Shown piece by piece: positions 8,355 to 61,216 of a stretch of 64,000 nt of DNA (positions are counted from its first letter, which is position 1; each line of letters starts with the position of its first letter). This DNA is from Deferrisomatales bacterium (GTDB lineage Bacteria > Desulfobacterota > Deferrisomatia > Deferrisomatales > JACRMM01), in NCBI GenBank assembly GCA_033551855.1, contig JAWSUI010000005.1, positions 31,026 through 95,025 on the forward strand, written 5' to 3'. The position numbers were made by a program, and so were the translations under genes. A model generated the notes under the pieces. The model ran no database searches. It was not told the DNA's origin and saw only the letters and a program-made list of their open reading frames with translations.

Positions 8355-8421
8355 AGCCTCCCCCCGGAGGGGCCTGCACGGTCGGGCGGGCACCGCTCGT
8401 GCTTCGAGCGCCCCCCTCCTG

Positions 8422-8441
8422 CCTCCCCCCGGAGGGGGAGG
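8422..8441. repeat. G/C hairpin CCTCCCCC-cgga-GGGGGAGG (family copy 2)
   Basis: Read directly, between the response regulator and the hypothetical gene. Confidence 0.65.
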
Positions 8442-8476
8442 GAATAAGGAAGTACTTAACGATGAAAGGAGCTGCG

Positions 8477-9001
8477 ATGCCCGGAGACCTGCTCAAGGGA
8501 GACCTGGTCCGCCACCCCGCCCTGGGGCTGGGCCGTGTGGAGGAGACCTCAGGCTTCGGGGAGGAACAACGGTGCAAGGTGTGCTTCGTCCGCTCCGGCA
8601 AGGAGACCTACTTCGGCCGCGGCGATCTGGCGCCGCTGACCCCGGCCGAGATCGCCGCCTACGAGCTCGTCAAGCTCGCGGTGCGCGACCTGCGCGAAGA
8701 GGAGCTGCCCGCGGTGGAGATGGCCGAGCGGTGGGAGGGGGGCGAGCTCGTCCTCAAGCCCGCGGATCCCGCCCTGGCCCCCAAGGCCGTGCCGCTCGAG
8801 GCCTTCTTCCACAAGATCGTCATGATCCGGGACCGCCTGCGCGTCCTCGAGCAGCAGGTCAACGCCCACCCCAACCTCACCGACCAGGACCGGGTGGGCC
8901 TCCAGCAGTACATCACCCGCTGCTACGGGAGCCTCACCACGTTCAACGTGCTCTTCAAGCGCAAGGAGGACTGCTTCGTGGGGCAGAAGGGGGAGAAGTA
9001 A
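8477..9001 (+). CDS. Hypothetical protein
   Basis: ORF 8399..9001 trimmed to the ATG 5 nt after AAGGAG. Balanced, non-repetitive composition (…GDLVRHPALGLGRVEE…YITRCYGSLTTFNVLFKRKED). No family recognised. Confidence 0.6.
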   Translation: MPGDLLKGDLVRHPALGLGRVEETSGFGEEQRCKVCFVRSGKETYFGRGDLAPLTPAEIAAYELVKLAVRDLREEELPAVEMAERWEGGELVLKPADPALAPKAVPLEAFFHKIVMIRDRLRVLEQQVNAHPNLTDQDRVGLQQYITRCYGSLTTFNVLFKRKEDCFVGQKGEK

Positions 9002-9869
9002 AGAGCTGCTGCACCGCCAGCCCGCCCACGATGAGGGCGAGGCCGGCGAAGGTGGAGGGGAGGATCGCCTCTCCCACAAACGTCCGGATGAAGACGAGCG
9101 AGAGGAAGGGGGAGAGGAAGACCAGGTTCCCCACCCGCGAGGCGTTCTCCGCCAGCCGCAGCGCCCGCAGCCAGAGAACGAAGGCGATCCCCATCTCGAA
9201 GGTGCCCACATAGGCCGCCCCCAGAAGACCTCCGGCGTCGGGAAGGCGCACCTCCGAGAAAAGGGCGCACCCGAGCCACACGAAGGGGAGCCCGAAGAGG
9301 AAGTTGAGGAAGAGCGCCGCCACGGGGTCCCGGTCGTCCCGGGTGTTGGCGATCCAGTAGAGGGACCAGAGGACGGTGCTTCCCAGGGCCAGGGAGACCC
9401 CCAACGGGTCGGAGAAGTGCAGGCCCAGGGGATCCCCCCGCGTGGCAATGACCACGACCCCCGCATAGCCCAGGAGCCCCCCGGCCACGTCCCCTCGCCG
9501 CAGCCGCTGCCCCAGGAGCGGGACCGAGAGCAACGCCAGGGTGATGGCCCAGGTGTAGTTGAGGGCCTGGGCCTCCTGGGCCGGCAGCCGGTCGTATGCC
9601 CCGAAGAGCACGAGGTAGTAGAGGAGCGGGTTCAGGAGCCCCAGAACGGCCGAGCGCAGGTACTGGCCCCGGGTGTAGGTCAGCAGCACCCCCAGGCGCC
9701 CCTGGGCCGCCAGGATGACCGCGAGGACCAGGGTGGAGACGGCGCTCGCGTACAGGAGGAGCTGGAGCGGATCCAGGCGGCGGAGCGAGAGCTTGAACGC
9801 GCTGGCCACGGTGGACCAGAGGAGCACCGTGGCCAGCGCGTAGAGGGTGGCCCGGGTCCGGCGCGTCAC
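8955..9869 (-). CDS. DMT-superfamily (EamA-like) transporter
   Basis: Part of ORF 8955..10427. GTG start at 9869 overlaps the upstream stop (GTGA). About ten hydrophobic segments, e.g. LYALATVLLWSTVASAFK... and MGIAFVLWLRAL. Confidence 0.85.
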   Translation of the reverse strand: MTRRTRATLYALATVLLWSTVASAFKLSLRRLDPLQLLLYASAVSTLVLAVILAAQGRLGVLLTYTRGQYLRSAVLGLLNPLLYYLVLFGAYDRLPAQEAQALNYTWAITLALLSVPLLGQRLRRGDVAGGLLGYAGVVVIATRGDPLGLHFSDPLGVSLALGSTVLWSLYWIANTRDDRDPVAALFLNFLFGLPFVWLGCALFSEVRLPDAGGLLGAAYVGTFEMGIAFVLWLRALRLAENASRVGNLVFLSPFLSLVFIRTFVGEAILPSTFAGLALIVGGLAVQQLFTSPPSAPRSSPPCA

Positions 9870-17587: not shown

Positions 17588-17749
17588 AACGATCGGGTGG
17601 GCCCGCCCACTCCGGCAGACGATGCCGGGCTGCACGGCGGGAGCGCGCTCCCGCGCCGCATCCGGAATCCTCGCGATATCGCGGCTCCCGAAGCAGTTGC
17701 TCCCGTCGAGCGGCCGTCTGCCTACGTGGTCGGGCCCACCCGATCGTCC
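17588..17749. repeat. 162-bp element with 34-nt imperfect terminal inverted repeats (MITE-like or giant hairpin)
   Basis: Left arm AACGATCGGGTGGGCCCGCCCACTCCGGCAGACG. Reverse complement of right arm GGACGATCGGGTGGGCCCGACCACGTAGGCAGACG. Internal palindromes GGGAGCGCGCTCCC and CGCGATATCGCG. Confidence 0.65.
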
Positions 17750-17795
17750 CTGGACACGAGCACCCGGTCATTTCCCGGATGATCCCCTTCTGGGG

Positions 17796-18398
17796 TCAGA
17801 GGAGACCGCTCGGCCCCTGCCGTGCCGGCCGCGCCTTGAGCTTCCGGCCGAAGCGCCGGCGGAGCTTCGCCACCTTGGGGGCGATCACCACACGGCAGTA
17901 GCCCTGGCCCGGGTTGCGGCGGTAGTACTGCCTGTGCTCGGCCTCCGCCGGGTAGAAGGCGTCGAAGGGTACGACCTGGGTGACGAACCGAGCCCCCCAC
18001 AGACCCTCTGCCTCGAGCTGCCCGATGACCTCCTCGGCCGTCGATCTCTGGGCCTCCGAGTGGTAGAAGACCGCGGAGCGGTACTGGCTGCCCACGTCCG
18101 CCCCCTGGCGGTCGGGCGTGGTCGGGTCGTGTACGGCGAAGAAGACCTCGAGGAGCTCGCGAAACGAGAGGATGGCGGGGTCGAAGACCACCTGCACGGC
18201 CTCGGCGTGCCCCGTGGCACCGGTACACACCTGGCGGTAGGTCGGACGAGGCACGGCGCCCCCCGCGTACCCGGGCACCACCTCCTCCACGCCGGCCAGC
18301 TCCTCGAAGAGCGGTTCGAGGCACCAGAAGCACCCTCCGGCCAGGGTGGCCGTCTCCCGCCGTGCCGTTCCCCCCTCGCCGCCCCTTGCCATCGTCAC
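17796..18398 (-). CDS. msrA: Peptide-methionine (S)-S-oxide reductase
   Basis: 200 aa; ATLAGGCFWCLEPLF active site, GHAEAVQVVFDP, YHQQY-type C-terminus. Confidence 0.92.
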   Translation of the reverse strand: MTMARGGEGGTARRETATLAGGCFWCLEPLFEELAGVEEVVPGYAGGAVPRPTYRQVCTGATGHAEAVQVVFDPAILSFRELLEVFFAVHDPTTPDRQGADVGSQYRSAVFYHSEAQRSTAEEVIGQLEAEGLWGARFVTQVVPFDAFYPAEAEHRQYYRRNPGQGYCRVVIAPKVAKLRRRFGRKLKARPARQGPSGLL

Positions 18399-18458
18399 CG
18401 TCCCATCCCCTTTCTATCCCGCAAGCGCCCGCACACACGGCCGTGTCGCGCGGGGCCG

Positions 18459-18487
18459 TTGACCGGCGCGCGGGGCCATGCTATCCA
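18459..18487 (+). promoter_or_regulatory. Candidate sigma70 promoter TTGACC-17nt-TATCCA
   Basis: Consensus match only, about 100 nt upstream of the arginyltransferase-family gene. Confidence 0.35.
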
Positions 18488-18589
18488 GATCCCACCGTGA
18501 CCCTGGAACCCAGCCCCCTCGACCCCTCTGCCGCCGTCCCCGGCGGCGGGAGCGCGCCCGCCCGCGAGACAGGCGTCCGCCCGCAGCGG

Positions 18590-19315
18590 ATGTCCTTCTA
18601 TCCCACCCTCCCGGTGCCTCTCGGCCTCGAGGTCTCCGCCACCCCGCCCCACGAGTGCCCGTACCTGCCGGGCCGATCCGCCGTGAGCCGGGGCTTCCGG
18701 TGCGACGCCGTGCCCGGGTGGGCGTACCAGGAGCTGATGGACGCCGGCTTTCGCCGCTCGGGCCGGGTCTTCTACCAGATGGCGTGCCCGGGCTGCCGGA
18801 ACTGTGTACCGCTCCGGGTTCCGGTGGCGGGATTTCGCCCCGGCAAGAGCCAGCGCAGGGTCTGGCGCCGCAACGGCAACCTGGAGATCAGCCTGGGCCC
18901 TCCGGAGCTCACGGGGGAGAAGGCCGACCTCTTCCGGCGCTACCTCGCCGCCCGCCACGACGGCCGGATGGCCGGTGACCCCCGGGAGCTGGAGGGCTTC
19001 CTGTACCGCTCGCCCACGGACACCCTTGAGACCTGCTACCGGACCCCCGAGGGCCGGTTGGTGGGGGTGGGCATCTGCGACCGGACCCCCACGGCCCTGA
19101 GCACGGTCTACTTCTACTTCGAGCCCGACTGCTCCCCGCGGGGACTCGGCATCTTCAGCAGCCTGGCGGAGATCCGGCTCGCCGAGGCCCTCGGCCTGAC
19201 CCACTACTACTTCGGCTACTGGATCGAGGGTTGTCCCAGGATGGCGTACAAGGCGGGTTTCCGGCCCTGTGAGCTCCTGGGCACCGACGGCCTGTGGCGA
19301 CCCTTCGGGGTTTGA
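18590..19315 (+). CDS. Arginyl/leucyl-tRNA--protein transferase (ATE/Bpt family)
   Basis: ORF 18362..19315 trimmed to MSFYPTLP... HECPYLPGRSA, FRRSGRVFYQMACPGCRNCVPLRV and YYFGYWIEGCPRMAYKAGFRP are typical of the family. Confidence 0.85.
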   Translation: MSFYPTLPVPLGLEVSATPPHECPYLPGRSAVSRGFRCDAVPGWAYQELMDAGFRRSGRVFYQMACPGCRNCVPLRVPVAGFRPGKSQRRVWRRNGNLEISLGPPELTGEKADLFRRYLAARHDGRMAGDPRELEGFLYRSPTDTLETCYRTPEGRLVGVGICDRTPTALSTVYFYFEPDCSPRGLGIFSSLAEIRLAEALGLTHYYFGYWIEGCPRMAYKAGFRPCELLGTDGLWRPFGV

Positions 19316-19330
19316 GCCCCTCGCGTCCCA

Positions 19331-19490
19331 CCCCTGTGGGAGCGCCTCCCGGGCGTGAACCGAGCCGCAGGCCCGCCCGATCACAGACCCGTCTCGGGCA
19401 GGAGCCCGCTCCCACAGAGGCAAGCATCGCGCGTCCCCGCAGGCCCGCCAAGGCACAGACCCGTCGCGGGCGGGAGCCCGCTCCCACGGG
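19331..19490. repeat. REP cluster: one inverted partial copy plus two tandem 72-bp units
   Basis: CCTGTGGGAGCGCCTCCCGGGCG (inverted) lies at about 19331. CACAGACCCGTC[T/G]CGGGC[A/G]GGAGCCCGCTCCCAC occurs at 19382 and 19454. The cluster sits between convergent genes. Confidence 0.7.
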
Positions 19491-19511
19491 CAGCGGCAGC
19501 CGCCCGGCGCC

Positions 19512-19934
19512 CTATCGCCCGGCGCCGTCCTCGCGAAACCCCAGCACCACGAGGACGCAGCTCCCGTCGGCGATGACGTTCACCCCGGCCTCCTCGCACC
19601 GTGCCACCGCCGCCGGGCTCTCGGCCCCGGGCTGCATCCAGACGTTGCGGATGCCTCGGGCGATGGCCTCCTCCACCACCCGCTCCGTGACCGCCGGCGG
19701 AGTGATGACCGAGATGCTCGAGACCTCGTCCGGGAGGTCTGCGACCCCTGCCGCGCAGGGGAGGCCTTCGACCGCTGCCTCCTTCGGGTTCACCGGGACG
19801 ACCCGGCGCCCGTTCTGGACGTAGCAGCGCAAGACCTTGTTGCCGTACTTGGACCGGTCCGCCGAGGCCCCCACCACGCCGAAGGCCGGGGCGACGAGGA
19901 ACTGGCGGATGCGCTCTTCGATGGCGGTGCTCAT
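19512..19934 (-). CDS. CoA-binding domain protein (YccU/YneT-like)
   Basis: Last 140 aa of ORF 19512..20714: MSTAIEERIRQFLVAPAFGVVGASADRSKYGNKVLR... Its ATG overlaps the upstream stop. Confidence 0.85.
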   Translation of the reverse strand: MSTAIEERIRQFLVAPAFGVVGASADRSKYGNKVLRCYVQNGRRVVPVNPKEAAVEGLPCAAGVADLPDEVSSISVITPPAVTERVVEEAIARGIRNVWMQPGAESPAAVARCEEAGVNVIADGSCVLVVLGFREDGAGR

Positions 19935-30389: not shown

Positions 30390-33062
30390 TCACACCTTCT
30401 CCACCCGCACCGCGCAGACCTTGTACTCGGGGATCTTGGCCGTGGGGCAGACCACCGGGTTGGTCAGCACGTTCACCGGGGACTCGCTGTAGTGGAAGCT
30501 CAGGAACACGGTGCCGGGCGCGGTGCGGTCCACCACCTGTACCTTGGTCCGGATCTCGCCCCGGCGGGAGGACACCTGGACGGTGTCGCCGGTCCGGAGT
30601 CCCAGCTTCTCCGCGTCGGCCGGGTGCACCTCCATGAAGCCCTCGGGAAAGCAGTCGTTGATGCGCCCGCACCGCCGGGTCATGGTGCCCGAGTGGTAGT
30701 GGGCGTGCTCCCGGCCGGTGGTGAGCAGGAGCGGGTACTCGGCGTCCGCCTTCTCGTCCGCCCCGCGGAACGCGACCGGCGTGAAGAGCCCCTGGCCCCG
30801 GGTGAACTTGCCCACGTGGAGGATCGGCGTGCCCGGGTGATCCTTGCTCGGGCAGGGCCACTGGAGCCCCTCGCGCTCGAGCCGGGCGTAGTCCATGCCG
30901 GCGTAGCTGGGCGTCAGGCGGGCGATCTCGTCGAAGACCTCCGAGGGCCCTTCGTAGCTCATCTTGAGGCCCATGCGGCCGGCCAGGTCCTGAAAGATCT
31001 CCCAGTCCGGCCGGGACTCGCCCCGGGGCGCCACGGCCGCCCGCACCCGCTGGACTCTGCGCTCGGTGTTGGCGAAGGTGCCGTCCTTCTCGGCGAAGGA
31101 GCTGGCCGGGAGCACCACGTGGGCCTTGGCGGCGGTCTCGGTGAGGAAGATGTCCTGGACCACCAGGAGCTCGAGCTTCTCGAGCGCCTCTCCGACGTGG
31201 CTCAAGTCCGGGTCGGTGATCATGGGGTTCTCGCCCATGACGTAGAGGGCCTTGACCGTACCGTCCAGCGCGCCGTGGGTGGCCTCGGTCACGGTGAGCC
31301 CGGGCTTGCGGGGGACCTTGCGGCCCCAGGCCTCTTCGAACTTGGCCGCGGCCGCGTCGTCGTCCACCCGCTGGTACCCGGTGAGGACGTTGGGGAGGCC
31401 CCCCATGTCGCAGGCGCCCTGCACGTTGTTCTGGCCCCGCAAGGGGTTCAGCCCCCCGCCCTCCACGCCGACGTTGCCGCACAGCATCGCGAGGTTGGCC
31501 AGGGCCTTGACGGCATCGGTGCCCTGGGAGTGCTGGGTGACGCCCATGCAGTAGAGGATCGATGCCGGCTTCGCGGCGGCGTAGAGGCGCGCGGCCTCCC
31601 GGAGGGACTCCGCGGGCACCCCGATGATCAGCTCCACCTTCTCCGGCGTGAAGTCGGCCAAGGACGCGGCGAGTTCCTCGAAGCCCTCGCACCGCTCGGC
31701 CACGTAGGCCGCGTCGTGGAGCCCCTCCGCGAGGATCACGTGCATCATCGCGTTGAGGACGGGGATGTTGTGGCCGGGTTCGATCTGCAGGAAGACGTTC
31801 GCGTAGTCCGTGAGCGGGATCCGGCGGGGATCGACCACGACCAGCTTGGCCCCCTTCCGGGTGATGGCTCGTTTGAGCACATCGCCGATGATCGGATGGT
31901 TCTCGGTGGTGTTGGAGCCGATGACCAGGAACGCCGCGGCCTTCTCGAAGTCGGCGATGGAGTTGGTCATCGCGCCGGAGCCGAAGCTGGTGGCCAGACC
32001 GGCCACGGTGGCGCTGTGTCAGAGTCGTGCGCAGTGATCGACGTTGTTGGTGCCGATCACCGCGCGGAAGAACTTCTGGAAGAGGTAGTTGTCCTCGTTC
32101 GTGCACCGGGCGCTCGCGAACCCTGCGACCGCGTCGGGGCCGCTCTCGTCCTTGATCTGCTGGAGCTTCGACGCGACAAAACCGAGGGCCTCGTCCCAGG
32201 TGGCCTCCGCGAGCTGGCCGTTCTTCCGCACCAGGGGCACGGTGAGCCGGTCGGGGTGGTTGACGAACTCCCAGCCGAACCGGCCCTTCACGCACAGGCT
32301 CCCCCGGTTCGGGACCGCGTCGAAGTCGGTGGTGGTGACCCGCAGGACCTGGTCGTTCTTCGCGTTGAGCTCGAGCTGACACCCGACGCCGCAGTACCCG
32401 CACGTGGTGCGGACGCGGCTGGCCTGCCAGGTGCGTGCCTTGCGGGGCATCACCGAGTCGGTCAGCGCCCCCACCGGGCAGACCGAGAGGCACTCGCCGC
32501 AGGAGATGCACTCCACCCCCGGCACCGGGCCGATGTAGGAGTGGAACCCGTTGTCGACGATCTGGATGCACCCGATGCCCTTGATCTCCTTGCAGGCGTG
32601 GACGCACCGGGCGCACAGCACGCATCGGTCGGGCCACTGCTGGATGAATGGGGAGACGTACCGGGGCACGGGGCGCTCGAAGGTCTCGGCCGCAAAGTCC
32701 TGCTTCGTGACGCCGAATTCCCAGGTCAGGTCCTGGAGGTCGCACTCGCCCCCCTTGTCGCAGACCGGGCAGTCCAGGGGGTGGCGCACGAGGAGGAGCT
32801 TGAGGACGTCGCGCCGCATCTCCCGGAGCTCCTCCGACTCGGTGCGCACGACGAGGCCCTCTCCGGCCGGGGTGTCGCAGGCGGTGATGGGCTTCCGATA
32901 CCCCTCCACCTCCACCACGCACATGCGGCAGGACCCGATGGGGGCGAGCTTCTTGAGCCAGCACAGGGTCGGGATCCGAATCCCCACCGACTGGGCGGCC
33001 TCGAGAATCGTCGTCCCCTTGGGGACGCTCACCGCTTTGCCGTCGATCGTCAGGCTGATCAT
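30390..33062 (-). CDS. Selenocysteine-containing FdhA/NuoG-like molybdopterin oxidoreductase subunit (ORF-track pieces 32019..33098 and 30390..32006 joined across an in-frame TGA)
   Basis: Both pieces are in the same frame, separated only by TGA at 32019-32021: ...[30 protein letters not shown]... N-terminus has 2Fe-2S plus HPLDCPVCDKGGECDLQD (NuoG/FdsA-like). Then CVLCARCVHAC, CISCGECLSVCP, TTCGYCGVGCQL (MopB 4Fe-4S) and a C-terminal molybdopterin dinucleotide-binding domain. Start at MISLTIDGK (GAGGGG 8 nt upstream) or 12 codons earlier at 33098. Confidence 0.9.
31990..32021 (-). promoter_or_regulatory. UGA(Sec) codon plus bacterial SECIS hairpin
   Basis: mRNA reads UGA CAC AGC GCC ACC GUGGCC-GGUCU-GGCCAC. 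A 6-bp stem carries apical loop GGUCU at nt 22-26 from the U of UGA, the same loop sequence and spacing as E. coli fdhF. Confidence 0.8.
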
Positions 33063-33165
33063 GCAGAACCCCTCGCGGAGATGCAGGCTGTCGGCCATGG
33101 ACTGTTTGCCCTCAGCCCTTCCCGTGTCACGTATGACCCAACGCTTGGCATACTCGCTGTGAACT

Positions 33166-38600: not shown

Positions 38601-40547
38601 TCAGGTCTTGAGGTCCTCCAGGTCCTGGAAGTGGCTCAGGGCCTGGGGGTTGGCCAGGGCGTCCTTGTTCTTGACCTCCTCGCCCTGCACCGTCTTGAGC
38701 ACCGCCATCTCGACCAGCTTCCCGCTGATGGTCCGCGGGATCTCGGGCACCTGGATGATCTTGGCGGGCACGTGCCGGGGGGTGGTGTTCTGGCGGATGT
38801 GGTCGCGAATCCTCTTCTTCAGGGCCTCGTCGAGCGTCACCCCTGGCCGGAGCACGAGGAACAGCACCACCCGAACGTCGTCCTCCCAAGGCTGGCCGAT
38901 GACCAGGGCCTCCACCACCTCCTCCAGGGCTTCCACCTGGCGGTAGATTTCGGCGGTGCCGATCCGCACCCCGCCGGGGTTGAGGGTGGCGTCGGAGCGG
39001 CCGTACACGATCACGCCGCCGTTCTCGGTGATCTCGATGTAGTCCCCGTGGCGCCACACCCCGGGGTAGTGTCGGAAGTACGCGTCGAGGTACTTCTCGT
39101 CGCCCGGGTCGTTCCAGAAGCTCACCGGCATGGACGGGAAGGGGGCGGTGCACACGAGCTCGCCCTTCCGGCCCACGACGGGTTTCCCGTCGTCGTCCCA
39201 GGCCTCCACCTTCATCCCCAAGCCCCGCTTCTGGATCTCACCCGCGTACACCGGGCTGATGGGCGACCCCAGGATGAAGCAGGAGATGATGTCGGTGCCC
39301 CCGGAGATCGAGGCGAGTTGGAGGTCCTGCTTCACCTCCCGGTACACCCACTCGAAACTCTCGACGGAGAGCGGCGAGCCGGTGGAGCAGACGGCCTTCA
39401 CGGGCGAGAGGTCGAAACGGGCACCGGGGTGCACCTCGCTCTTCTCGCACATCGCGAGATACTTCGCGCTCGTGCCGAAGATCGTGACCTTCAGGTCCTG
39501 GGCCATCTTCCACAGCACGGACATGTCCGGGTAGCCGGGGCTGCCGTCGAAGAGGACGACGGTGGAGCCCACGTAGAGGGAGCTCACGAGCCAGTTCCAC
39601 ATCATCCACCCGCAGGTGGTGAAGTAGAAGATCGTGTCCTCCCGCTTGAGGTCGCAGTGGAGCATGAGCTCCTTCGCGTGTTGGATCAGGGTTCCCCCCG
39701 CCCCGTGCACGATGCACTTCGGGACCCCGGTGGTTCCCGAGGAGTACATGATGTAGATCGGATGGTCGAAGGGCAGTTGGGCGAACTCCACCTCCCGCGC
39801 GTCGTTGCCCAGGGCCTCGGCCCAGAGAAGCGCCTTCGGTACGGAGGAGAGGTCCGGCTGGGCCGTCACGAAGGGCACCACCACGATCTTCTCGATGGAC
39901 CGGATCTCCCGGGCCACCTCCGCAACCCGGGCCAGGGAGTCGAAGGACTTGCCGTTGTAGAAGTACCCGTCCGCGGTGAGGAGCACCTTCGGCTCGATCT
40001 GGCCGAACCGGTCCATCACCCCCTTGAACCCGAAGTCCGGGCTGCAGGAGGACCAGATCGCCCCCAGGCTCGTGGCCGCCAACATCCCCACCACCGTCTC
40101 GATCCGGTTGGGCATGAAGCCGGCCACCCGATCCCCCTGGCCGACCCCGGCGCGCCGGAGGAAGCGGGCAAACCGGGCCACCTGGAGATAGAGCTCCTTG
40201 TAGGACACGCGCTCCGGGATCCCCTGCTCGCCCACGAAGACCAGGGCAGTGCGCTCGTCCCGATGTCGGAGCAGGTTCTCCGCGAAGTTCAGGCGGGCCC
40301 CCCGGAACCACCGGGCCCCCGGCATGACCGGGTTCTCCAGCACCGCCTCGTAGGGGGTGGAGGACCGGATGTCGGCAAACTTCCACATCGCCTCCCAGAA
40401 GGCCGGGATCTCCCGGACCGACCACTCGTACAGGTCGTCGTACCCCTGGAGCGAGAGGCCGTGGTCCCGGTTCACGTCGGCGAGGAACCGGGTCAGATTG
40501 GCCTGGGCCACCTTGTCCGCGGACGGGGTCCAAAGGAGCTTGCTCAT
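38601..40547 (-). CDS. Acetoacetyl-CoA synthetase (acetoacetate--CoA ligase)
   Basis: 648 aa. MSKLLWTPSADKVAQANLTRFLADV... is typical of the AACS N-terminus. AMP-binding motif YSSGTTGVPKCIVH. Confidence 0.9.
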   Translation of the reverse strand: MSKLLWTPSADKVAQANLTRFLADVNRDHGLSLQGYDDLYEWSVREIPAFWEAMWKFADIRSSTPYEAVLENPVMPGARWFRGARLNFAENLLRHRDERTALVFVGEQGIPERVSYKELYLQVARFARFLRRAGVGQGDRVAGFMPNRIETVVGMLAATSLGAIWSSCSPDFGFKGVMDRFGQIEPKVLLTADGYFYNGKSFDSLARVAEVAREIRSIEKIVVVPFVTAQPDLSSVPKALLWAEALGNDAREVEFAQLPFDHPIYIMYSSGTTGVPKCIVHGAGGTLIQHAKELMLHCDLKREDTIFYFTTCGWMMWNWLVSSLYVGSTVVLFDGSPGYPDMSVLWKMAQDLKVTIFGTSAKYLAMCEKSEVHPGARFDLSPVKAVCSTGSPLSVESFEWVYREVKQDLQLASISGGTDIISCFILGSPISPVYAGEIQKRGLGMKVEAWDDDGKPVVGRKGELVCTAPFPSMPVSFWNDPGDEKYLDAYFRHYPGVWRHGDYIEITENGGVIVYGRSDATLNPGGVRIGTAEIYRQVEALEEVVEALVIGQPWEDDVRVVLFLVLRPGVTLDEALKKRIRDHIRQNTTPRHVPAKIIQVPEIPRTISGKLVEMAVLKTVQGEEVKNKDALANPQALSHFQDLEDLKT

Positions 40548-40741
40548 CGGGGTTCCTCCTCAAAGAAGGGCGTGGCGGGCGCCACCGCGCAGACGGCCCG
40601 GGAACCTCCGACGCTCGGATGCTCCGGCCGGAGCCGCGACAATACCCAAACGCTCCCTTCCCTTCAACCCGGTTTCGGGGCCCCGCACCGACCCTCCGCA
40701 GGCAAGCGTGCTCGTGCCGTCCGGCCCGTGGGCCCTGCCTG

Positions 40742-40952
40742 GTAGTACAACGAGAGTTGCGTCCGAGTCGGGCGCGGGGCCTTCCTGGACAGCAGGCAGG
40801 CGGCCTTGGAACGATGCTCCGGGCGCACCCAAGGGCCGTAGGGCCGCTCGAAACCGCCTCGCGATCTGCACTGCGCGCCGGGATCCTGCCCGCCGGAGGG
40901 GTGGTTTCGCGCCGAACGCACACGAAGACCCGATCGCTCGTTGCGGTACTAG
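40742..40952 (+). repeat. Structured element, copy A (about 211 nt, self-complementary termini)
   Basis: 193-nt core (40751-40943) matches the reverse complement of 48363-48555 with 18 substitutions and no indels by hand alignment. Termini GGTAGTACAACGAG / CTCGTTGCGGTACTAG can pair. Confidence 0.8.
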
Positions 40953-41446
40953 CCCCCGGTCTCGGTGTGGGACAGCCCTGTGAGCCTGTCTACCACCGAC
41001 AGGGGGAGGGGCCCGTGGAGCCCGCAAAGGCGCCAATTCCTCCTTCCAGGTTCGGGCCATCCCTCCCTCACAGGTGTTCCCCGTACCGATGGAGGCGCGG
41101 CGCCGCAAAGGCCCCTTTCAGGGGCGGCGCTCCCCCCCGAAAACCGGCTCCCCTTCGAGCACCACGAGCCGCTCCGCGAAGTCGACGGCCTCTGGGGCAT
41201 CGACCCGGATGTCTCCCGGGTCCGTCCGGCAAAGCGGTCGAGGTTCTCCATATCCCAGGCGGACACGGGGGTCTCGCGCGGCCGGGGGATGAGGTCCGGC
41301 GCCTCCAGGGGGCACGGCCGCGCACCCTCTTTGTGCATGCCCGGCATGCCAACTGCCCTGCGACACGAGCCCTCACGGGAAACGAGCGCAGGACCTCCCC
41401 GACCCTGCTCCCCTTGGCCGCTTGGCCATCCGCGGCCCAATGCCTA

Positions 41447-41475
41447 TTGACATTCGTTCCCGGATTCCTTAAGAT
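41447..41475 (+). promoter_or_regulatory. Candidate sigma70 promoter TTGACA-17nt-TAAGAT upstream of metK
   Basis: Best consensus match in the window; implies a leader of roughly 410 nt. Confidence 0.5.
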
Positions 41476-41894
41476 CCTGTGCGCAATTCCAATAGTGGCC
41501 TTGCGCCTACAGGGGAACAGAATCAATCCCGGATGGCCGGGGAGCATGGCAACGGCGCAGCAAACCCAAGAGAGGCCCGCCTGAAGCCTGGAGGGGACGT
41601 CATCGCAGATTGCGCAGAACCATCCAGTTTACGCCTCCGAACCACACGCCCCGACTCTCCCCGCCTCCCTGTACCTCGACCTCCGTAGGTCTGCCCCAGG
41701 ACTTCTGAGGAGCCGAGAGGCTCCCTGCCTCCCCCGCACGGGATCGTTCCGTCCCGGTGCGGCCTGTGCGCGGCATCTCCCCTGGACACGGCGCTTACCG
41801 TCTTCCCCCGGCGCGTTCGGCACCGCTCGGGCGTTGCAGCCGGCCTTCTTCTTCCCCCTGTGAACCCCGACGAACACCAAAGAGGAGAGCAACC

Positions 41895-43070
41895 ATGGGC
41901 ATGACCGACTTTCTCTTCACCTCCGAGAGCGTCACCGAGGGACACCCCGACAAGGTGGCCGACCAGATCTCCGACGCCGTGCTCGACACCCTGCTGGCCC
42001 AGGACCCAGCGAGCCGCGTGGCCTGCGAGACCATGGTGACCACGGGGATGGCCATCATCGCCGGGGAGATCACCACCCAAGGGTACGCGCACATGCCCGA
42101 CGTGGTACGTCAGACGATCCGGGACATCGGCTACACCGACCCGGCGCTGGGCTTCGACTGGGAGACCTGCGCGGTGCTGACCTCCATCGACCGGCAGAGC
42201 CCGGACATCGCCCTGGGCGTCGACGAGTCTGAAGGACACGAGCAGGGGGCAGGCGACCAGGGCCTGATGTTCGGTTACGCCACGAACGAGACGCCGGAGC
42301 TCATGCCCATGCCCATCGTGTACGCCCACAAGCTCACGCGCCGGCTCGCCGAGGTCCGCAAGCAGAAGCTCGTGGACTGCCTCCGGCCCGACGGCAAGAG
42401 CCAGGTGACGATCCGCTACGTGGACGGCAGGCCCGTGAGCGTGGACGCGGTGGTGGTGAGCACCCAGCACTCCCCCGACGTCACCCAGCAGACGGTGAGG
42501 GAGGCGGTGATCGAGACCGTGATCAAGCCCGTCATCCCCGAATCCCTGCTCACCGAACAGACCCGGTTCTACATCAACCCCACCGGCCGTTTCGTGGTAG
42601 GGGGCCCCATGGGCGACTGCGGCCTCACGGGCCGAAAGATCATTGTCGACACCTACGGGGGGCAGGGAAGCCACGGCGGGGGAGCCTTCTCGGGCAAGGA
42701 CCCGTCGAAGGTGGACCGGTCCGCCTCCTACCTGTGCCGGTACGTGGCCAAGAACATCGTCGCCGGCGGGCTGGCAGACCGGTGCGAGGTCCAGTTGGCT
42801 TACGCCATCGGCGTGGCCGACCCCGTCTCGGTGATGATCGACACCGGCGGCACCTGGAAGATCGAACCCGACCGCATCGCCTCACTCGTCCGGGAGATCT
42901 TCCCGCTCAAGCCCAGGGAGATCATCCGGCACCTCGACCTCCTGCGCCCCATTTACCGCAAGACCGCCGCCAACGGCCACTTCGGCCACGACGACCCCGA
43001 CTTCACGTGGGAGCGAACGGACAAGGCGGAGGAGCTCGCCCGGGCAGCCGGGCTAGACGCCGCCGCATAG
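41895..43070 (+). CDS. metK: S-adenosylmethionine synthetase
   Basis: ORF 41757..43070 trimmed to the ATG after [53 protein letters not shown]. Confidence 0.97.
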
Positions 43071-43145
43071 CCCCCAGCCGAGCCCCCTCCTCGGGGGGCC
43101 CCCGGTGACGAAACCGGCGCGCTTTCCACCCCACACGGAGGAACC

Positions 43146-44078
43146 ATGTCCGCGTTGATCTGCGGATCGGTCGCCTACGACACGATCATGGTGTTCGAGG
43201 ACCGCTTTCGGAACCACATCCTGGCCGACCAGGTGCACATCCTCAACGTCGCCTTCCACGTCCCGACCCTGCGGCGCGAATTCGGGGGGTGCGCCGGCAA
43301 CGTCGCCTACAACCTCGTCCAACTCGGGATGGACGCGCACCCCCTGGCCACCGTGGGGGACGACTTCGCCCCCTACGCGGCCTGGATGGACCGCTGCGGG
43401 ATCCGGCGCGACCTGGTGCGCACAGTGCCCGGTACCTTCACGGCCCAGGCGTTCATCACCACCGATCTGGACGACAACCAGATCACCGCGTTCCACCCGG
43501 GGGCCATGGACCACGCCCACGTGCAGCCGATCCCCACCGGGGGGGCCTTCCGGGTCGCCATGGTCTCCCCGGACGGGAGGCGCGGGATGATCGAGCACGC
43601 GGAGCAGCTGGCCGAGGCCTCGATCCCCTTCGTGTTCGACCCCGGCCAGGGCCTGCCCCTGTTCTCGGGGGAGGAGCTGCGGCGCTTCGTCGATCTGGCG
43701 AGCTGGGTCGCCCTGAACGACTACGAGTCCCGGCTCCTGGCTGAGCGCACCGGCCTGGGGCCGGCGCAGATGGCCGAGCGCGTCGAGGCCGTGGTCGTAA
43801 CTCGCGGGGCCGAGGGGTCCCGGATCTGGGCACAGGGTACGATCCACGAGATCCCGGCGGCCCCGGCGAGGACGGTGGCGGACCCTACCGGCTGCGGCGA
43901 CGCCTACCGGGCCGGCATCCTCTACGGGATCCTAGAGGGGCTGGACTGGCCCACCGCCGGCAGGATCGCCGCGCTCCTGGGAGCGGCCAAGGTCGCCTCC
44001 CACGGCACCCAGAACCACGCCTTCGATGTCGGGACCCTGGCTGAGCGTTTCTTCGAGGCGTTCGGATACCGCATCTGA
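43146..44078 (+). CDS. PfkB-family carbohydrate/nucleoside kinase, probable adenosine kinase
   Basis: 310 aa; [11 protein letters not shown] and [12 protein letters not shown] PfkB signatures; position between metK and ahcY. Confidence 0.8.
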
Positions 44079-44128
44079 CCTCACTAGAAGACACCTCGGG
44101 CCTCCCCGGGGAGAAGAGGAGAGACGAC

Positions 44129-45640
44129 ATGACCGCACTTCCCGCCCTTTCGCTGACCAACGAGCGACCGGCCTTCCGGGTTGCCGACCTGAGCGAGGCC
44201 ACCGTGCGCTTCGGACGCAAGGAGATCGAGCTGGCCGAGCACGAGATGCCGGGGCTGATGGCCCTGCGTGCGGAGTACGCCGGCGAGAGGCCCCTGGCGG
44301 GGGCACGCATCATGGGCTCCCTGCACATGACCATCCAGACCGCCGTGCTCATCGAGACCCTGGTGGAGCTCGGTGCCGACGTGCGCTGGGTGAGCTGCAA
44401 CATCTTCTCCACCCAGGACCACGCGGCGGCGGCCACCGTGGTCGGCCCGGGCGGCAATGCGGATCACCCCTCGGGAGTTCCGGTGTTCGCGTGGAAGGGC
44501 GAGACTCTGGCCGAGTACTGGTGGTGCACCCTGCAGGCGCTGATCTGGCCGGACGGCTCGGGGCCGAACCTCCTTCTGGACGACGGCGGCGACGCCACCT
44601 TGCTCGCCCACCTGGGAGCCGAGTGCGAGGAGAAGGGAGTCATTCCGGACCCCGCCACGGCCGAGAGCGAGGAGTTCTCGATCATTCTCGCGCTGCTCCA
44701 CCGGGTGCGCGAAGAGCAGGGAGCGGACTTCTGGCGGCCGCTTGCGGCGGCGATCCGGGGGGTCTCGGAGGAGACCACCACGGGGGTGCACCGGCTCTAC
44801 GAGCGGATGGAGAACGGCACGCTCCGGTTTCCCGCGATCAACGTCAACGACTCGGTGACCAAGAGCAAGTTCGACAACATCTACGGTTGCCGCCACTCCC
44901 TGGTGGACGGGCTCATGCGTGCCACGGACGTCATGCTCGCGGGCAAGCGGGCGCTGGTGTGCGGTTACGGCGACGTGGGCAAGGGCTGTGTGGAAAGCCT
45001 TCGGGGCCAGCAGGCCCGGGTCGCGGTGAGCGAGATCGACCCGATCTGCGCCCTGCAGGCATGCATGCACGGGCTCGACGTGATCACGGTGGAGGACGCC
45101 CTCCCCGATTTCGACGTCTACGTGACCGCCACGGGCAACAAGGCGATCATCCGCGCCGAGCACATGGCGCGCATGAAGCACAACGCGGTCGTGTGCAACA
45201 TCGGGCACTTCGACAACGAGATCGACATGGCGGGGCTGGAGCGGATGCGCCGTTCCGGCGAAGTGGAGAAGATCGAGATCAAGCCTCAGGTGCACGAGTG
45301 GCGGTTCACGAAGAGCTCCCACGGGCCGGGGGGAGGCGCCCATTCCATCCTGCTCCTGGCCGAGGGGCGGCTGGTGAACCTGGGCTGCGCCACCGGGCAC
45401 CCGAGTTTCGTCATGTCGGCCTCCTTCACGAACCAGGTGATGGCGCAGATCGAGCTGCACCGGAACGCCGAGAGGTACGGGAAGAGCGTCACCGTGCTCC
45501 CCAAACAGCTCGACGAGAAAGTGGCACGGCTCCACCTGGGCCGGTTCGGCGCCAGGCTCACCCGGTTGACCTCGGATCAGGCTGCCTACATCGGGGTGCA
45601 CCCGGAGGGCCCCTACAAGACCGACCACTACCGGTATTGA
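44129..45640 (+). CDS. ahcY: Adenosylhomocysteinase
   Basis: 503 aa; [42 protein letters not shown]. Confidence 0.97.
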
Positions 45641-45710
45641 CCGACGCGGTGGCGAGACCCGTGAACCCGCAGCACCGTCGGCGCCGCCACGACGCCGGCA
45701 GGAGGTTCCC

Positions 45711-46493
45711 ATGAGAAGACGGCATCGAATCCAGTTTCCGAGAGAAGAGGGACGCCACCTGGGCCAGGACGAGGCGTTCTTCTACCTGATCCGCGGCGAC
45801 ACGAAGGAACGCATCCGCTTTCACGACTACGACAAGCTTTACAGCGTCCCCGGGCTGTATGAGCAACTCTTCTACGACCGGCTCAAGTGCCAGTCCCCTA
45901 AGAAGGTCACCCAGATCCTCAAGGCGGCGCTCGCCCAGTGCCAGGAGAGCATCAGTGAGCTGCGGGTCCTGGATCTGGGTGCGGGCAACGGGATGATGGG
46001 GGAAGCCCTGGTTCAAGAGCACGGCGTGTCGCGCCTGGTAGGCGCCGACATCATCCCCGAGGCGTACGAGGCTACCGAGCGGGACCGCCCCGGTCTGTAC
46101 GACGAGTACTACGTCGCGGACTTCTGCAACCTCGACGAGGGGTTGCGGGAGGAGATCGCCTCTTGGCAGTTCAACTGTTTGACCACCGTGGCCGCCTTGG
46201 GCTTCGGGGACATACCCACAAAGGCCTTCATCGAGGCATTCAACATCATCCGAAGCCAGGGTTGGGTCGCGTTCAACATCAAGGAGACGTTCCTAGACGC
46301 CAGCGATCAGACGGGGTTCTCCCGGACCATTCGGGAGCTGATATGGTCCGATTACCTCGATCTCTACTATCTGGAGCGGTACCGCCACCGTCTCTCCATG
46401 GAGGGCGAACCCCTGTCGTACTTCGCCATCGCTGCCCGCAAGAACGCGGACATCCCGGAGGGGTATCTGCAGGACCTCGGGATCAACGGCTGA
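45711..46493 (+). CDS. Class I SAM-dependent methyltransferase, substrate unknown
   Basis: 260 aa. Motif I VLDLGAGNGMMGE. Conserved-looking N-terminal segment IRFHDYDKLYSVPGLYEQLFYDRLKCQSP. Visibly lower G+C and some rarer codons than the neighbours. Confidence 0.85.
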   Translation: MRRRHRIQFPREEGRHLGQDEAFFYLIRGDTKERIRFHDYDKLYSVPGLYEQLFYDRLKCQSPKKVTQILKAALAQCQESISELRVLDLGAGNGMMGEALVQEHGVSRLVGADIIPEAYEATERDRPGLYDEYYVADFCNLDEGLREEIASWQFNCLTTVAALGFGDIPTKAFIEAFNIIRSQGWVAFNIKETFLDASDQTGFSRTIRELIWSDYLDLYYLERYRHRLSMEGEPLSYFAIAARKNADIPEGYLQDLGING

Positions 46494-46553: not shown

Positions 46554-47150
46554 TCAGGCGCCCCGTTCGCCGGGGCGGCGCACCCGGGCCTTGAGGAGGG
46601 GAAGGACCTCGGGGAACCGGGGGTGTCGGCCGCTGCCGAGCCAGGCGAAGAGCAGGGTCTCCGCGGTGAGGGGGGTCACCCCTCCGGCCTCCAGGAGGCG
46701 TCGCCCCACCCTCTCGTCGGCCGCCGCGCGGGAGGCGACCGCGTCGGCCAGGTAGTGGGCGCGAAAACCCCGGGCCCGGAGCCCCAGTGCGGTGTGGAGG
46801 ACGCACACGTGTGCCTCCACGCCGGCCAACAGGGCCACCGGGCGCCCCAGGGATGCGGTCGCCGAGACGAAGGCGGGCTCGGCATTGGCGTCGTAGGGCA
46901 CCTTGGGCACCACCGGCGACTCGGCCGGTGCCGCCGCCAGGACATCGGGATGGACCGGCCCCATCTTTTCGGGCTCCAAGGCCAGGAGGACGGCGGGCAC
47001 GCCGAACGCTCCGAGGGCGGCGACGGCAAAAGCCGCGCTCCGGGGGACCCGGCGGGCCCGTCCCGGGGGGTAGGCCTTGAGCAGGCCCGGCTGCACGTCC
47101 ACCACCACCAGGAAATAGTCCTCGACCGTCGGGATCAGCTCCGCTCCCAC
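46554..47150 (-). CDS. Isochorismatase-family (cysteine) hydrolase
   Basis: ORF 46554..47297 trimmed to the GTG 5 nt after AAGGAG. FLVVVDVQ, GVEAHVCVLHTAL. Start overlaps the upstream gene by 16 nt. Confidence 0.8.
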   Translation of the reverse strand: MGAELIPTVEDYFLVVVDVQPGLLKAYPPGRARRVPRSAAFAVAALGAFGVPAVLLALEPEKMGPVHPDVLAAAPAESPVVPKVPYDANAEPAFVSATASLGRPVALLAGVEAHVCVLHTALGLRARGFRAHYLADAVASRAAADERVGRRLLEAGGVTPLTAETLLFAWLGSGRHPRFPEVLPLLKARVRRPGERGA

Positions 47151-48319
47151 GTCTTCTCCTTCCCCGAGCCGCCGCCGACGCCCCCCCGGGCCGCCTTCTT
47201 CCCGGGCGCTTCGCCGGGCCCGAGCGCCTCTGCCACCACGCACCGCACGCCCCTGCCCTCTCTTCCCGGGGCGAAGCAGCCGCTGCAGCTCGTGCACCGG
47301 GCAGGGCTCCGGTCTCCGGCCGCCCAGCGGGACGGCAGGTCGGGTTCCCAGAGGAGAGGTCGGGAGAGACTGAAGAAGTCAGCGACCCCCTCGAAAAGGA
47401 GGCTCTCCAGGGTCTCGACCTGCCGGAGCCCCCCCACGACGGCCACCGGCGCGGAGACCCGGCGTTTGACCGCGGCAGCCAAACCCCGGAAGTAGGCCTC
47501 GTCGTCGGGCCCCTCCACCCGCCGCACCGGGCCCAGGGCCCCGGACCCCGGTGTCCCCCCGCTCACTTCGATGAGGCACGGAGCCCGCAGGTCGACCCAC
47601 TCCGCCACCCGGGCCGCCTCGTCGAGCTCCAGGCCGCCGGGGATGAAGTCCGCGCCATTGAGCTTGATCGCCACCGGGTAGTCGGGCCCCGCGCTTCCCT
47701 GCACGGCAGCCCAGACCTCCTGGAGGAAGCGGAATCGCTGCCGCACGCCGCCCCCGTAGCGGTCGGTGCGCAGGTTCGTCGCCGGGGAGAGGAACTGGTT
47801 GATCAGGAAGCCGTGAGCCGCGTGGAGCTGGACGAAGTCGAACCCGGCGTCCCGGGCGCGCCGCGCAGCCCTGCCGAAGTCGGCGACGATGCTGCCGATC
47901 TCTGCGGCGGAGAGCTCCCGGGGCACTTCCGGATACTGTGCCGCAGGGGTGAAAGAGGGCGCCAGGGGCGCCCGTCCCCCGATCCACTCGCCGCGCGTCT
48001 GGCCGCCGGCGTGCACGAGCTGGAGGCCCGCCAGGGCTCCCCCGTCCCGCATGGCGGCGGCGAGCCGCGTCAGCCCGGGCACGAGGGAGTCCTCCTGGGC
48101 CCCCAGCATCCCCGGCTGGTGGCGCCCCTCTGGGCTCACCGAGGCGTAACCCGTGACGATGACCCCCGCCCCCCCCTGCCCGAGCTCCCGGTAGCGCTCC
48201 ACGAGCGCTTCGGTTACCGCCCCCCGGCCGTCGGCCAGCCCCAGCCAGGTGGCGGAGCGCACGAGCCGGTTCCGTGCGGTGAGGGTGCCCATCTCCACGG
48301 GCTCGAAAAGGCTGTACAT
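47135..48319 (-). CDS. NADH:flavin oxidoreductase, Old Yellow Enzyme family
   Basis: ORF 47135..48532 trimmed to MYSLFEPVEMG...; HAAHGFLINQFLSPATNLRTDRYGG. Confidence 0.9.
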   Translation of the reverse strand: MYSLFEPVEMGTLTARNRLVRSATWLGLADGRGAVTEALVERYRELGQGGAGVIVTGYASVSPEGRHQPGMLGAQEDSLVPGLTRLAAAMRDGGALAGLQLVHAGGQTRGEWIGGRAPLAPSFTPAAQYPEVPRELSAAEIGSIVADFGRAARRARDAGFDFVQLHAAHGFLINQFLSPATNLRTDRYGGGVRQRFRFLQEVWAAVQGSAGPDYPVAIKLNGADFIPGGLELDEAARVAEWVDLRAPCLIEVSGGTPGSGALGPVRRVEGPDDEAYFRGLAAAVKRRVSAPVAVVGGLRQVETLESLLFEGVADFFSLSRPLLWEPDLPSRWAAGDRSPARCTSCSGCFAPGREGRGVRCVVAEALGPGEAPGKKAARGGVGGGSGKEKTWERS

Positions 48320-48353: not shown

Positions 48354-48566
48354 CTATTGCTACAACGAGCGATCGGTTCTCCGCGCCCGTTCGGCGCGAA
48401 ACCACCCATCCGGCGGGCAGGATCCCGGCGCGCAGTGCAACTCGCGAGGCGGTTTCCAGCGGCCCTGCGGCCCTTCGGTGCGCCCAGAGGATCGCTCCAA
48501 GGCCGCCTTCCCGCTCTCCAGGAAGGCCCCACGCCCGACTCGGACGCAACTCTCGCGGTAGTACGA
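48354..48566 (-). repeat. Structured element, copy B (inverted relative to copy A)
   Basis: See copy A. It fills the whole spacer from the thioesterase stop (48567) to 34 nt before the OYE start. Confidence 0.8.
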
Positions 48567-49076
48567 TCACCCCCCGGGAGTGTCCTTTACGGGCGCTTCC
48601 CCCTGCGGCTGCCCCCGCGCCAGGCGAAACCGGGAGCCGAAGGTCGCGACCAGGGTCCCCCCCTCGGCGTAGACCTCCGCTTCCCCCTCCAGGTCCCGCC
48701 CCTCGAAGCGGGTCACACGGGCTCGCGCCTCCGCCGTCCCCCGCACCACGGGCGCCCGGAAACGGGTGGTCATCTCCACCGTGGCGAAGTGGGTCCCTTC
48801 GGGCAGGAGGCTCTTGATGGCCATCGCCACCGCCGTGTCCGCGAGGGTGGTCACGGCCCCGCCGTGGAGCAGGCCGGCACCCTGGGAAAGCTTTACCCGG
48901 AAAGGCATCCGCAGCACCGCCCGGCCTTCGGCGGCCTCCAGGATCTCCAGGCCGCAGAGCTCCTCGAAGGGGGCCGGTGCGATCCAGGCCGAGAGGGCGA
49001 ACTGGGGCTCCCCGGCTTCCGGGTCCCGGAGCTCGTCCCAACAATCTCGCCGAGAGCCGTCAGCCATCTGCCTCAT
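48567..49076 (-). CDS. PaaI-family hotdog-fold thioesterase
   Basis: ORF 48567..49172 trimmed to the ATG overlapping the upstream stop (ATGA); GLLHGGAVTTLADTAVAMA. Confidence 0.85.
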   Translation of the reverse strand: MRQMADGSRRDCWDELRDPEAGEPQFALSAWIAPAPFEELCGLEILEAAEGRAVLRMPFRVKLSQGAGLLHGGAVTTLADTAVAMAIKSLLPEGTHFATVEMTTRFRAPVVRGTAEARARVTRFEGRDLEGEAEVYAEGGTLVATFGSRFRLARGQPQGEAPVKDTPGG

Positions 49077-50197: not shown

Positions 50198-52180
<1,983 letters not shown>

Positions 52181-52280
52181 GCTTCCCTCCTTACCCACAG
52201 GTTGACAAACGGAGCCTCTCACGTGAATACCGCAGCCGAGCACCGGCGCGGGCCCAACCGGGCGAACAGGGTGGAGGCGG

Positions 52281-52309
52281 ATTCTACCGAAGCGAACAGC
52301 GGTGGACAA
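52281..52309 (-). promoter_or_regulatory. Candidate sigma70 promoter of acs, TTGTCC-17nt-TAGAAT
   Basis: Consensus match on the minus strand about 100 nt upstream of the acs start. Confidence 0.4.
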
Positions 52310-52652
52310 CCCCAAAACGACGTTATGAAACCAACCGATCGGTAGGCGGCGGGCGCCGGGGGCGCTCTCAACGGGTCGAGAACCGGCTTTTCCGGGGAAA
52401 GACGGGTTTCACACCCAGGGACGGCCGGTGGATCCGAGAGCGCAGGCGGACGGCCGATCGATGACCACACCCCCTTCGGGGCCGGGGTTCCCCCCCTGGC
52501 GGGTCGGAGGACCTGAGGGCTCGCAGGCGTGGGGTCGTCCGTCGGCGGCGGCCGGAGTCGGCGGACCCGCCCGGCCCTTTCTCGGATGGTCCCGAAGACC
52601 TGCCCCGCGCGACCTCCGCGAACGCCCCCACGGCGCAACACCCTTCGCGGGA

Positions 52653-61056: not shown

Positions 61057-61142
61057 GCCCGGGTGGTGGAACGGCAGACACAGGGGACTTAAAATCCCCA
61101 GGCCGAGAGGCCGTGCGGGTTCGAATCCCGCCCCGGGCACCA
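61057..61142 (+). tRNA. tRNA-Leu (anticodon UAA), CCA encoded
   Basis: Acceptor stem GCCCGGG/CCCGGGC. Anticodon stem-loop GGGGA-CTTAAAA-TCCCC. Long variable arm GGCCGAGAGGCC. T-arm GCGGGTTCGAATCCCGC. Discriminator A plus CCA. Coordinates may be off by 1 nt. Confidence 0.93.
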
Positions 61143-61191
61143 CCAATAGGAACAAGGTTCATCCGGGAAACGACCGGGGCCACGTGCCTGG

Positions 61192-61216
61192 GGACGATCG
61201 GGTGGGCCCGGCCACG
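61192..61216 (+). repeat. Solo copy of the 17588-17749 element arm (GGACGATCGGGTGGGCCCGGCCACGG)
   Basis: Matches both arms of the TIR element; lies 50 nt downstream of tRNA-Leu. Confidence 0.6.

Follow-up and report, generated by a model that had tools for sequence, protein, structure and literature searches.

A sharp-edged 211-bp inverted repeat in a Deferrisomatales contig: a candidate lineage-specific, MITE-like mobile element

Introduction

The window analysed here, a continuous stretch of 64,000 nucleotides (64 kb) from a Deferrisomatales bacterium, contains a sequence of about 211 nt that is found twice, in opposite orientations, once in a stretch free of genes and once between two genes of an operon. 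What kind of element is it, and how did it come to occupy these two sites? The initial annotation of the window described it as a structured, internally self-complementary element, and a MITE-like mobile hairpin, an RNA and a recombination site were named as candidates. In this study, the two copies and their sites were compared with each other and with the corresponding loci of related lineages, and the ends, the fold and the coding potential of the element were examined. Our results favour, with some reserve, a MITE-like mobile repeat.

Results

Gene content of the window

About 40 ORFs in the window have GC3 support, and these are ordinary chromosomal genes, which include mutL, lepA, the nuo and metK operons, two acs-like genes and genes for an RND efflux system, PEP carboxylase and hybrid kinases. 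A search of these ~40 GC3-supported ORFs revealed no transposase, integrase or reverse transcriptase. Within the nuo cluster, two adjacent ORFs at 30390-33098 on the minus strand represent one gene that is interrupted by an in-frame TGA (32019-32021). The first ORF carries 2Fe-2S and 4Fe-4S domains together with the start of a molybdopterin domain, and the second ORF carries the rest of that domain. The TGA lies in the motif VIGTNNVDHCARL[TGA]HSATVAGL, where catalytic subunits of the formate-dehydrogenase-like type classically have their selenocysteine.

The repeat is a single pair with sharp edges

The repeat search of the 64-kb window returned a single inverted pair of 211 nt, with copy A at 40742-40952 on the plus strand and copy B at 48354-48564 on the minus strand, 88% complementary and by far the longest repeat of the window. 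The recurrence in inverted orientation that had been reported is thus real (blastn E=6.6e-75 between the copies), except that copy B ends at 48564, and the earlier end coordinate of 48566 was 2 nt too far. The copies are separated by 25 substitutions (13 transitions and 12 transversions) and no indels, and the longest identical run is 31 nt. The earlier hand count of 18 substitutions without indels in a 193-nt core (positions 10-202) was exact. The similarity breaks off abruptly at both edges, and neither blastn with a word size of 7 nor nhmmer with a two-copy profile detected any further copy, whole or partial, in the window. The GC content of copy A is 68.7%, against 69.5% for the window. 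Copy A is located upstream of both a divergent acs-like gene (by 194 nt) and the metK promoter (by 495 nt). Copy B is inverted with respect to copy A; it is co-oriented with a minus-strand operon and fills the spacer between its thioesterase and Old Yellow Enzyme genes. The repeat is a discrete, sharp-edged unit whose two copies have unrelated surroundings and opposite orientations.

Other, smaller repeats were observed in the window. A second small family consists of a 61-nt inverted pair at 17725-17785 and 61156-61216 (85% identical), and the latter arm starts 14 nt after a tRNA-Leu(TAA) gene at 61057-61142. There is also a 51-nt direct repeat (19365-19415 and 19437-19487, 88%, with a spacing of 72 nt) inside a 1.5-kb stretch (18398-19931) that has no GC3-supported ORF, and a 2.2-kb stretch at 7650-9866 likewise has none.

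Copy B interrupts a conserved gene order

Copy B follows a 4HBT thioesterase gene (48567..49067, minus strand), whose TGA stop codon at 48567-48569 is located 2 nt before the copy, and it precedes an Old Yellow Enzyme family gene (OYE, Oxidored_FMN; 47135..48319, minus strand), whose ATG comes 34 nt after the copy with its GGGAGA ribosome-binding site kept. The order methyltransferase-thioesterase-OYE-isochorismatase is common to four related lineages (L020/L021, L022, L023 and L138), in which the OYE is 86, 84, 78 and 72% identical, respectively, to that of the window. The thioesterase-OYE spacer measures 75 nt in L020/L021, 52 nt in L022, 56 nt in L023 and 75 nt in L138, compared with 247 nt in the window, and nhmmer found the element in none of the relatives' loci examined. 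In the L023 spacer, a short tandem repeat, CCAATCA x3, was observed upstream of OYE (L023 1648-1703).

The pairwise OYE identities indicate that L023 is the outgroup of the window lineage, L020 and L022; because L023 stands outside these three, parsimony favours a single gain, in the window lineage. The orthologous spacers are empty in four related lineages, and therefore copy B was inserted. On this comparative sequence evidence, copy B reads as an insertion into a conserved operon and not as a conserved regulatory leader. The idea of a cis-regulatory leader of the OYE operon was rejected on the same grounds, as the element is absent at the orthologous position in all four lineages.

Copy A lies in a rearranged region

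The stretch around copy A (40548..41893, 1.35 kb) had been described as gene-free, and our tests agreed with this. It shows no codon-phase GC signal, compared with GC3 values of 0.9-1.0 in the flanking genes, and its ORFs have no Pfam match. In all six relatives' loci examined (L018, L019 and L024-L027), ptsI is found directly upstream of metK; the ptsI-metK spacers of these loci are 86-255 nt long, are not homologous to the stretch in the window and do not contain the element. Since ptsI precedes metK in the relatives, copy A therefore lies in a region that was rearranged in the window lineage. The metK of the window shares 91% identity with proteins of Deferrisomatales MAGs and 83% with the Deferrisoma camini protein, and the OYE of the window matches a protein of a Deferrisomatales MAG at 100% identity.

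Several further features of this region were recorded. The metK-ahcY block (41894-46493) occupies a genomic place unlike that in all relatives examined (ptsI-metK-ahcY-icd in L018, L019 and L024-L027), and among these relatives only the window has a pfkB-family kinase gene (43146-44078) between metK and ahcY and a methyltransferase gene after ahcY. Tandem repeats of the CTAGAGACTAGAAA type were seen upstream of metK in D. camini (L019 9745-9800). In the window, a strong sigma-70-like promoter (TTGACA-17-TAAGAT) at 41447-41475 precedes metK and leaves a leader of ~420 nt before the metK start (~41894). No SAM riboswitch or other Rfam family matched this leader (41447-41893), which may be an unrecognised regulatory leader or a small RNA. 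Two acetyl-CoA-synthetase-like paralogs (ACAS_N plus AMP-binding) are both encoded on the minus strand, one (38601-40547) just beyond copy A and the other (50198-52315) at the head of the operon of copy B.

Beside copy A, a faint codon-phase GC signal was noticed at 41101-41250 (ORFs 41118-41366 on the minus strand and 40965-41450 on the plus strand). The minus strand of 41118-41366 reads as a protein-like tail that ends in …DIRVDAPEAVDFAERLVVLEGEPVFGG and a stop, and it has no Pfam match; the segment 41101-41250 may be a decayed gene fragment. A hidden gene or transposase remnant in 40953-41446 was considered and rejected, as there was no Pfam match and only the faint phase signal at 41101-41250.

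Ends and subterminal hairpins

In copy A, the left terminal inverted repeat (TAGTACAACGAG, 40743..40754, plus strand) pairs with the right one (CTCGTTGCGGTACTA, 40937..40951, plus strand, the reverse complement of TAGTACCGCAACGAG). Aligned with TAGTACCGCAACGAG, the left end reads TAGTA and then, after a 3-nt gap, CAACGAG, and it agrees at 12 of 12 positions; 0.7% of random 211-nt windows match as well (p ~0.007). The ends of copy B are degenerate, with only CTAC..CGAG remaining (p ~0.21), which is not above the window background. When the outermost 60 nt were compared, the inverted similarity did not exceed the window null, and no extended terminal inverted repeat (TIR) was found. The initial annotation had read the terminal change between the copies (GTAC/GTAC in A, CTAC/GTAG in B) as compensatory. 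This reading does not hold, as the change is out of register and the 3' partners are 3 alignment columns apart. No other site in the window has ends that match those of the element.

Both copies begin with G-TA and end with TA-G, so that TA is found at aligned columns 2-3 and 209-210. The left flanks outside the shared GTA differ (CCTG and GATC), and the thioesterase-OYE spacers of the relatives are too diverged to reveal the sequence before insertion. The TA at both edges possibly represents a 2-bp target duplication, or else it is part of the element. Of the two marks of insertion that the initial annotation had named, empty sites were found at copy B, but a direct repeat of at least 3 nt flanks neither copy.

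Near its left end, copy A carries a 7-bp subterminal hairpin, GCGTCCG-AGT-CGGGCGC (40759..40775, plus strand; positions 18-34); its counterpart in copy B (48531-48547) is closed by a G-U pair. Near the right end, the hairpin CGCGCC-GAAC-GGGCGCG is intact in copy B (48382..48398, minus strand; positions 167-183) and is broken in copy A (40908-40924) by four one-sided substitutions.

These hairpins raise the possibility that the element derives from a hairpin-dependent single-strand transposon (PATE/REPIN-like, of the IS200/IS605 or RAYT type). Such a derivative would be mobile and would have neither true TIRs nor a target duplication; it would be recognised via its subterminal hairpins and inserted beside a short specific sequence. 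The presence of a hairpin near each end (GCGTCCG-AGT-CGGGCGY on the left and CGCGCC-GAAC-GGGCGCG in copy B on the right), which are alike on the same strand, agrees with this idea, as does the lack of a clear target duplication, and the GTA shared at the left edge could then be a conserved target outside the element. However, the likeness between the left and right hairpins is at the level of the window null (direct score of 9.5, with a mean of 9.3 for the null), and copy A has a disrupted right hairpin and yet ends in an inverted repeat. Moreover, no Y1 transposase, TnpB or RAYT is encoded in the window, and no described transposon-associated RNA family in Rfam matches either copy. We consider this origin rather unlikely.

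Folding, substitutions and coding potential

The pairings named in the initial annotation are present in the element (GCGTCCG/CGGGCGC, CCTTCC/GG(C/A)AGG, GGCCTTGG/CCAAGGGCC, CGAAACCGCC/GGTGGTTTCG and the terminal pairing). However, GC-rich hairpins are to be expected because the sequence is 69% GC, and self-complementarity beyond chance was not borne out, as neither copy folds on either strand significantly better than its shuffles. Against dinucleotide shuffles, the z score of the minimum free energy (MFE) was +0.24 for the plus strand of copy A and -0.62 for its minus strand. For copy B it was -1.5 in the orientation that matches the plus strand of copy A, with a fold energy of -104.4 kcal/mol, and -0.9 on the other strand. 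In Rfam 15, nothing credible matched copy A or copy B at E<=10, and the sole gathering-level match in the window was the tRNA-Leu at 61057.

In the RNAalifold structure of the two sequences, the A+/B- orientation shows one double change (75:178) and the reverse orientation shows two, and there is therefore no strand preference. The substitutions were also compared with simulated ones, in which 25 random substitutions were introduced with the observed mix of transitions and transversions. The consensus fold of the real pair was no better than that of copy B combined with its own random mutants (p 0.39), and the stability of copy A was that of a random mutant of copy B (p 0.53). Of the random mutants of copy A with 25 substitutions, 99.5% were less stable than copy B (p 0.005). 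This pattern fits a history in which copy B is nearer to the ancestral sequence and copy A is decaying freely. The hint of selection on an RNA or hairpin structure that had been drawn from the two copies thus found no support in three results: there is no excess of folding, there is no Rfam match, and the substitutions preserve the fold no better than random ones. The reading of the repeat as a structured RNA is not supported.

A more specific form of this reading would be a structured non-coding or cis-regulatory RNA module in the A+/B- orientation, which was duplicated or mobilised within the genome and whose copy B would act on OYE through mRNA processing or stability or through translational control. 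It is in line with this proposal that copy B is so oriented inside the transcript of the operon, with the OYE start 34 nt downstream, and that it folds somewhat better that way. The G-C to C-G exchange at 75:178 and several changes from G-C to G-U also fit the RNAalifold structure, and the stability of copy B relative to mutants of copy A points in the same direction. Nevertheless, no fold was significantly better than the shuffles, the simulations gave no advantage to the real pair, and the opposite strand shows as many "consistent" changes. The orthologous spacers of four relatives do without the element, which argues against a conserved regulator of the operon. The nearest start codon in the orientation of copy A is 940 nt away, and the copy lies upstream of the promoter of the gene concerned; moreover, no Rfam family matches. 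An identity of 88% over 211 nt at unrelated loci is also atypically high for paralogous regulatory RNAs. We regard such a module as distinctly unlikely and continue to prefer a mobile repeat of the MITE-like kind.

The view that the element encodes no credible protein was confirmed. The substitutions between the copies are distributed over the three phases as 11:10:4, none of the frames stands out in its conservation, and the overlapping ORFs have neither a GC3 phase signal nor a Pfam match. A protein-coding remnant was rejected on the lack of a conserved frame, of a phase bias and of a GC3 signal. The concatenated six-frame translation of copies A and B matched no protein among 5.8 billion protein clusters, and a consensus scan revealed no promoter-like site within the element.

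Copies A and B do not bound a mobile or invertible segment

The inverted copies bracket 7,401 nt that include metK-pfkB-ahcY, and this arrangement could reflect a non-mobile duplication, in which a patch of intergenic DNA was copied once by ectopic recombination or gene conversion, or a recombination substrate in which a composite or invertible segment of 7.6 kb, with the metK operon, is bounded by the copies. The unusual placement of the metK block compared with all relatives examined would agree with this explanation, as would the fact that no other copies are known. On the other hand, the ancestral order (methyltransferase-thioesterase, then OYE-isochorismatase) spans copy B, so that copy B does not mark a boundary and the segment has kept the orientation of the ancestor; OYE and isochorismatase are in their ancestral place although the copies enclose them. 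The identical sharp edges at both sites and the terminal inverted repeat in copy A are unlike a random copied patch, and a longest identical run of 31 nt at 88% identity makes a poor substrate for homologous recombination. The gene order that continues through copy B contradicts the earlier candidate of a recombination site, as it does a segment boundary, and we judge this whole explanation to be very unlikely; an inserted, MITE-like repeat remains our preferred one.

The following candidates were rejected: a composite transposon or invertible segment bounded by A and B, because synteny crosses B; a TR/VR pair of a diversity-generating retroelement, because all kinds of substitution occur, both copies are intergenic and the window has no reverse transcriptase; and a retron or an integron attC site, because of the substitution pattern, the size and the lack of a reverse transcriptase or integrase in the window.

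Searches for relatives of the element

Public genome contigs were scanned for the exact block AGTTGCGTCCGAGTCGGG and public metagenome contigs for the exact block CACTGCGCGCCGGGATCCTG, and these scans, carried out with exact 18- and 20-mers, gave 8 and 9 matches, respectively. All of these matches were due to chance, and the source species was not among the contigs scanned in either collection. Of four exact blocks searched in viral contigs, two had no match, one had a single match and one had 108; the 108 matches belong to an unrelated prophage family that shares only ~21 nt with the element. No match to the element was obtained by blastn in the plasmid and phage collections, and a literature search returned nothing on such repeats in Deferrisoma. 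The element is without detectable relatives in the data searched.

Discussion

In this study, we found that a 211-nt unit with sharp edges occurs twice in the window, in inverted orientation, and that its copy B sits in an operon spacer where four related lineages have none. Taken together, we think it reasonably likely that the element is a lineage-specific, non-coding, non-autonomous mobile repeat of ~211 bp that is MITE-like. The MITE-like candidate of the initial annotation has thus fared well, with the empty sites at copy B, the short, non-coding and sharp-edged character of the unit and the terminal inverted repeat in copy A all in its favour. Several observations are less easily reconciled with it. 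There are two copies in the window, neither has an unambiguous target-site duplication, and the ends of copy B do not exceed the background (p 0.21). In addition, the GC3-supported ORFs of the window include no transposase, no other site of the window has matching ends, no related sequence turned up in the genome, metagenome, viral, plasmid, phage and protein data searched, and the element is not AT-rich.

If the element is indeed a MITE-like repeat, a transposase encoded elsewhere in the genome would have recognised the inverted termini (TAGTAC..AACGAG) and inserted the copies, possibly with duplication of a TA target. Copy B would have landed 2 nt past the thioesterase stop codon and 34 nt before the OYE start, inside the conserved operon. 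With a divergence of 12%, both copies are presumably old and decaying, copy A more than copy B. The internal GC-rich hairpins would then be a product of the 69% GC content, or features of the ends at the DNA level, rather than a selected RNA fold. Copy B is probably transcribed within the operon mRNA, and any effect on expression would be a side effect.

A more far-reaching proposal would see in the element a mobile gene or module for a structured RNA, one that inserts copies of itself into transcribed spacers and functions as RNA. It would be, for example, an orphan guide or scaffold RNA of the kind associated with transposons, or an independent element for processing or stability, and its functional form would be the A+/B- multi-hairpin fold, best kept in copy B. 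We hold this proposal to be highly improbable.

The MITE-like reading, if true, would add one more lineage-specific miniature mobile repeat, in Deferrisomatales. The element would mark a datable insertion in a conserved operon and a rearranged region beside the relocated metK operon. Its practical value would be modest, for instance in tracing genome rearrangement or in typing strains of the group. A greater importance would follow only if further copies showed that an RNA fold is conserved or led to a new transposase partner.

Comparison with known systems

The element resembles the large structured intergenic RNAs and riboswitch leaders of Rfam in its length of ~200 nt, in its several GC-rich hairpins and in the position of copy B just upstream of a gene. 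It is unlike them in that it has no match at E<=10 and no excess stability and is absent at the orthologous sites. Moreover, copies A and B are far more alike than unrelated loci with the same riboswitch class usually are.

With the IS200/IS605-derived PATEs and the REP/REPIN sequences, the element shares subterminal GC-rich hairpins, the lack of an obvious target duplication and an intergenic location. It differs from these in that the likeness of its hairpins is not above chance, in the terminal inverted repeat of copy A and in having no Y1 transposase or RAYT nearby. REP units are also much shorter than the 211-nt element.

Compared with typical MITEs, the element is as GC-rich as its host (69% GC) and not AT-rich, it has two copies in the window, its TIR is short and gapped and has degenerated in one of the copies, and no partner insertion sequence is found in the window. 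The TA at both edges, if it is a target duplication, would match the behaviour of Correia and IS630-type elements. Like the Correia/nemis elements of Neisseria and the ERIC/IRU elements of enterobacteria, it is short and non-coding, it has inverted termini in copy A, it occupies intergenic positions, including operon spacers, and it is present or absent at the same site between lineages. These families are likened to the element by such features and not by sequence similarity. Prokaryotic MITEs are described as shorter than 500 bp, with TIRs of between 4 and 30 bp and with direct repeats that are lost gradually in old copies (PMC10969869). The element resembles them in its size and in the length of the TIR of copy A, and direct repeats that have faded would fit as well.
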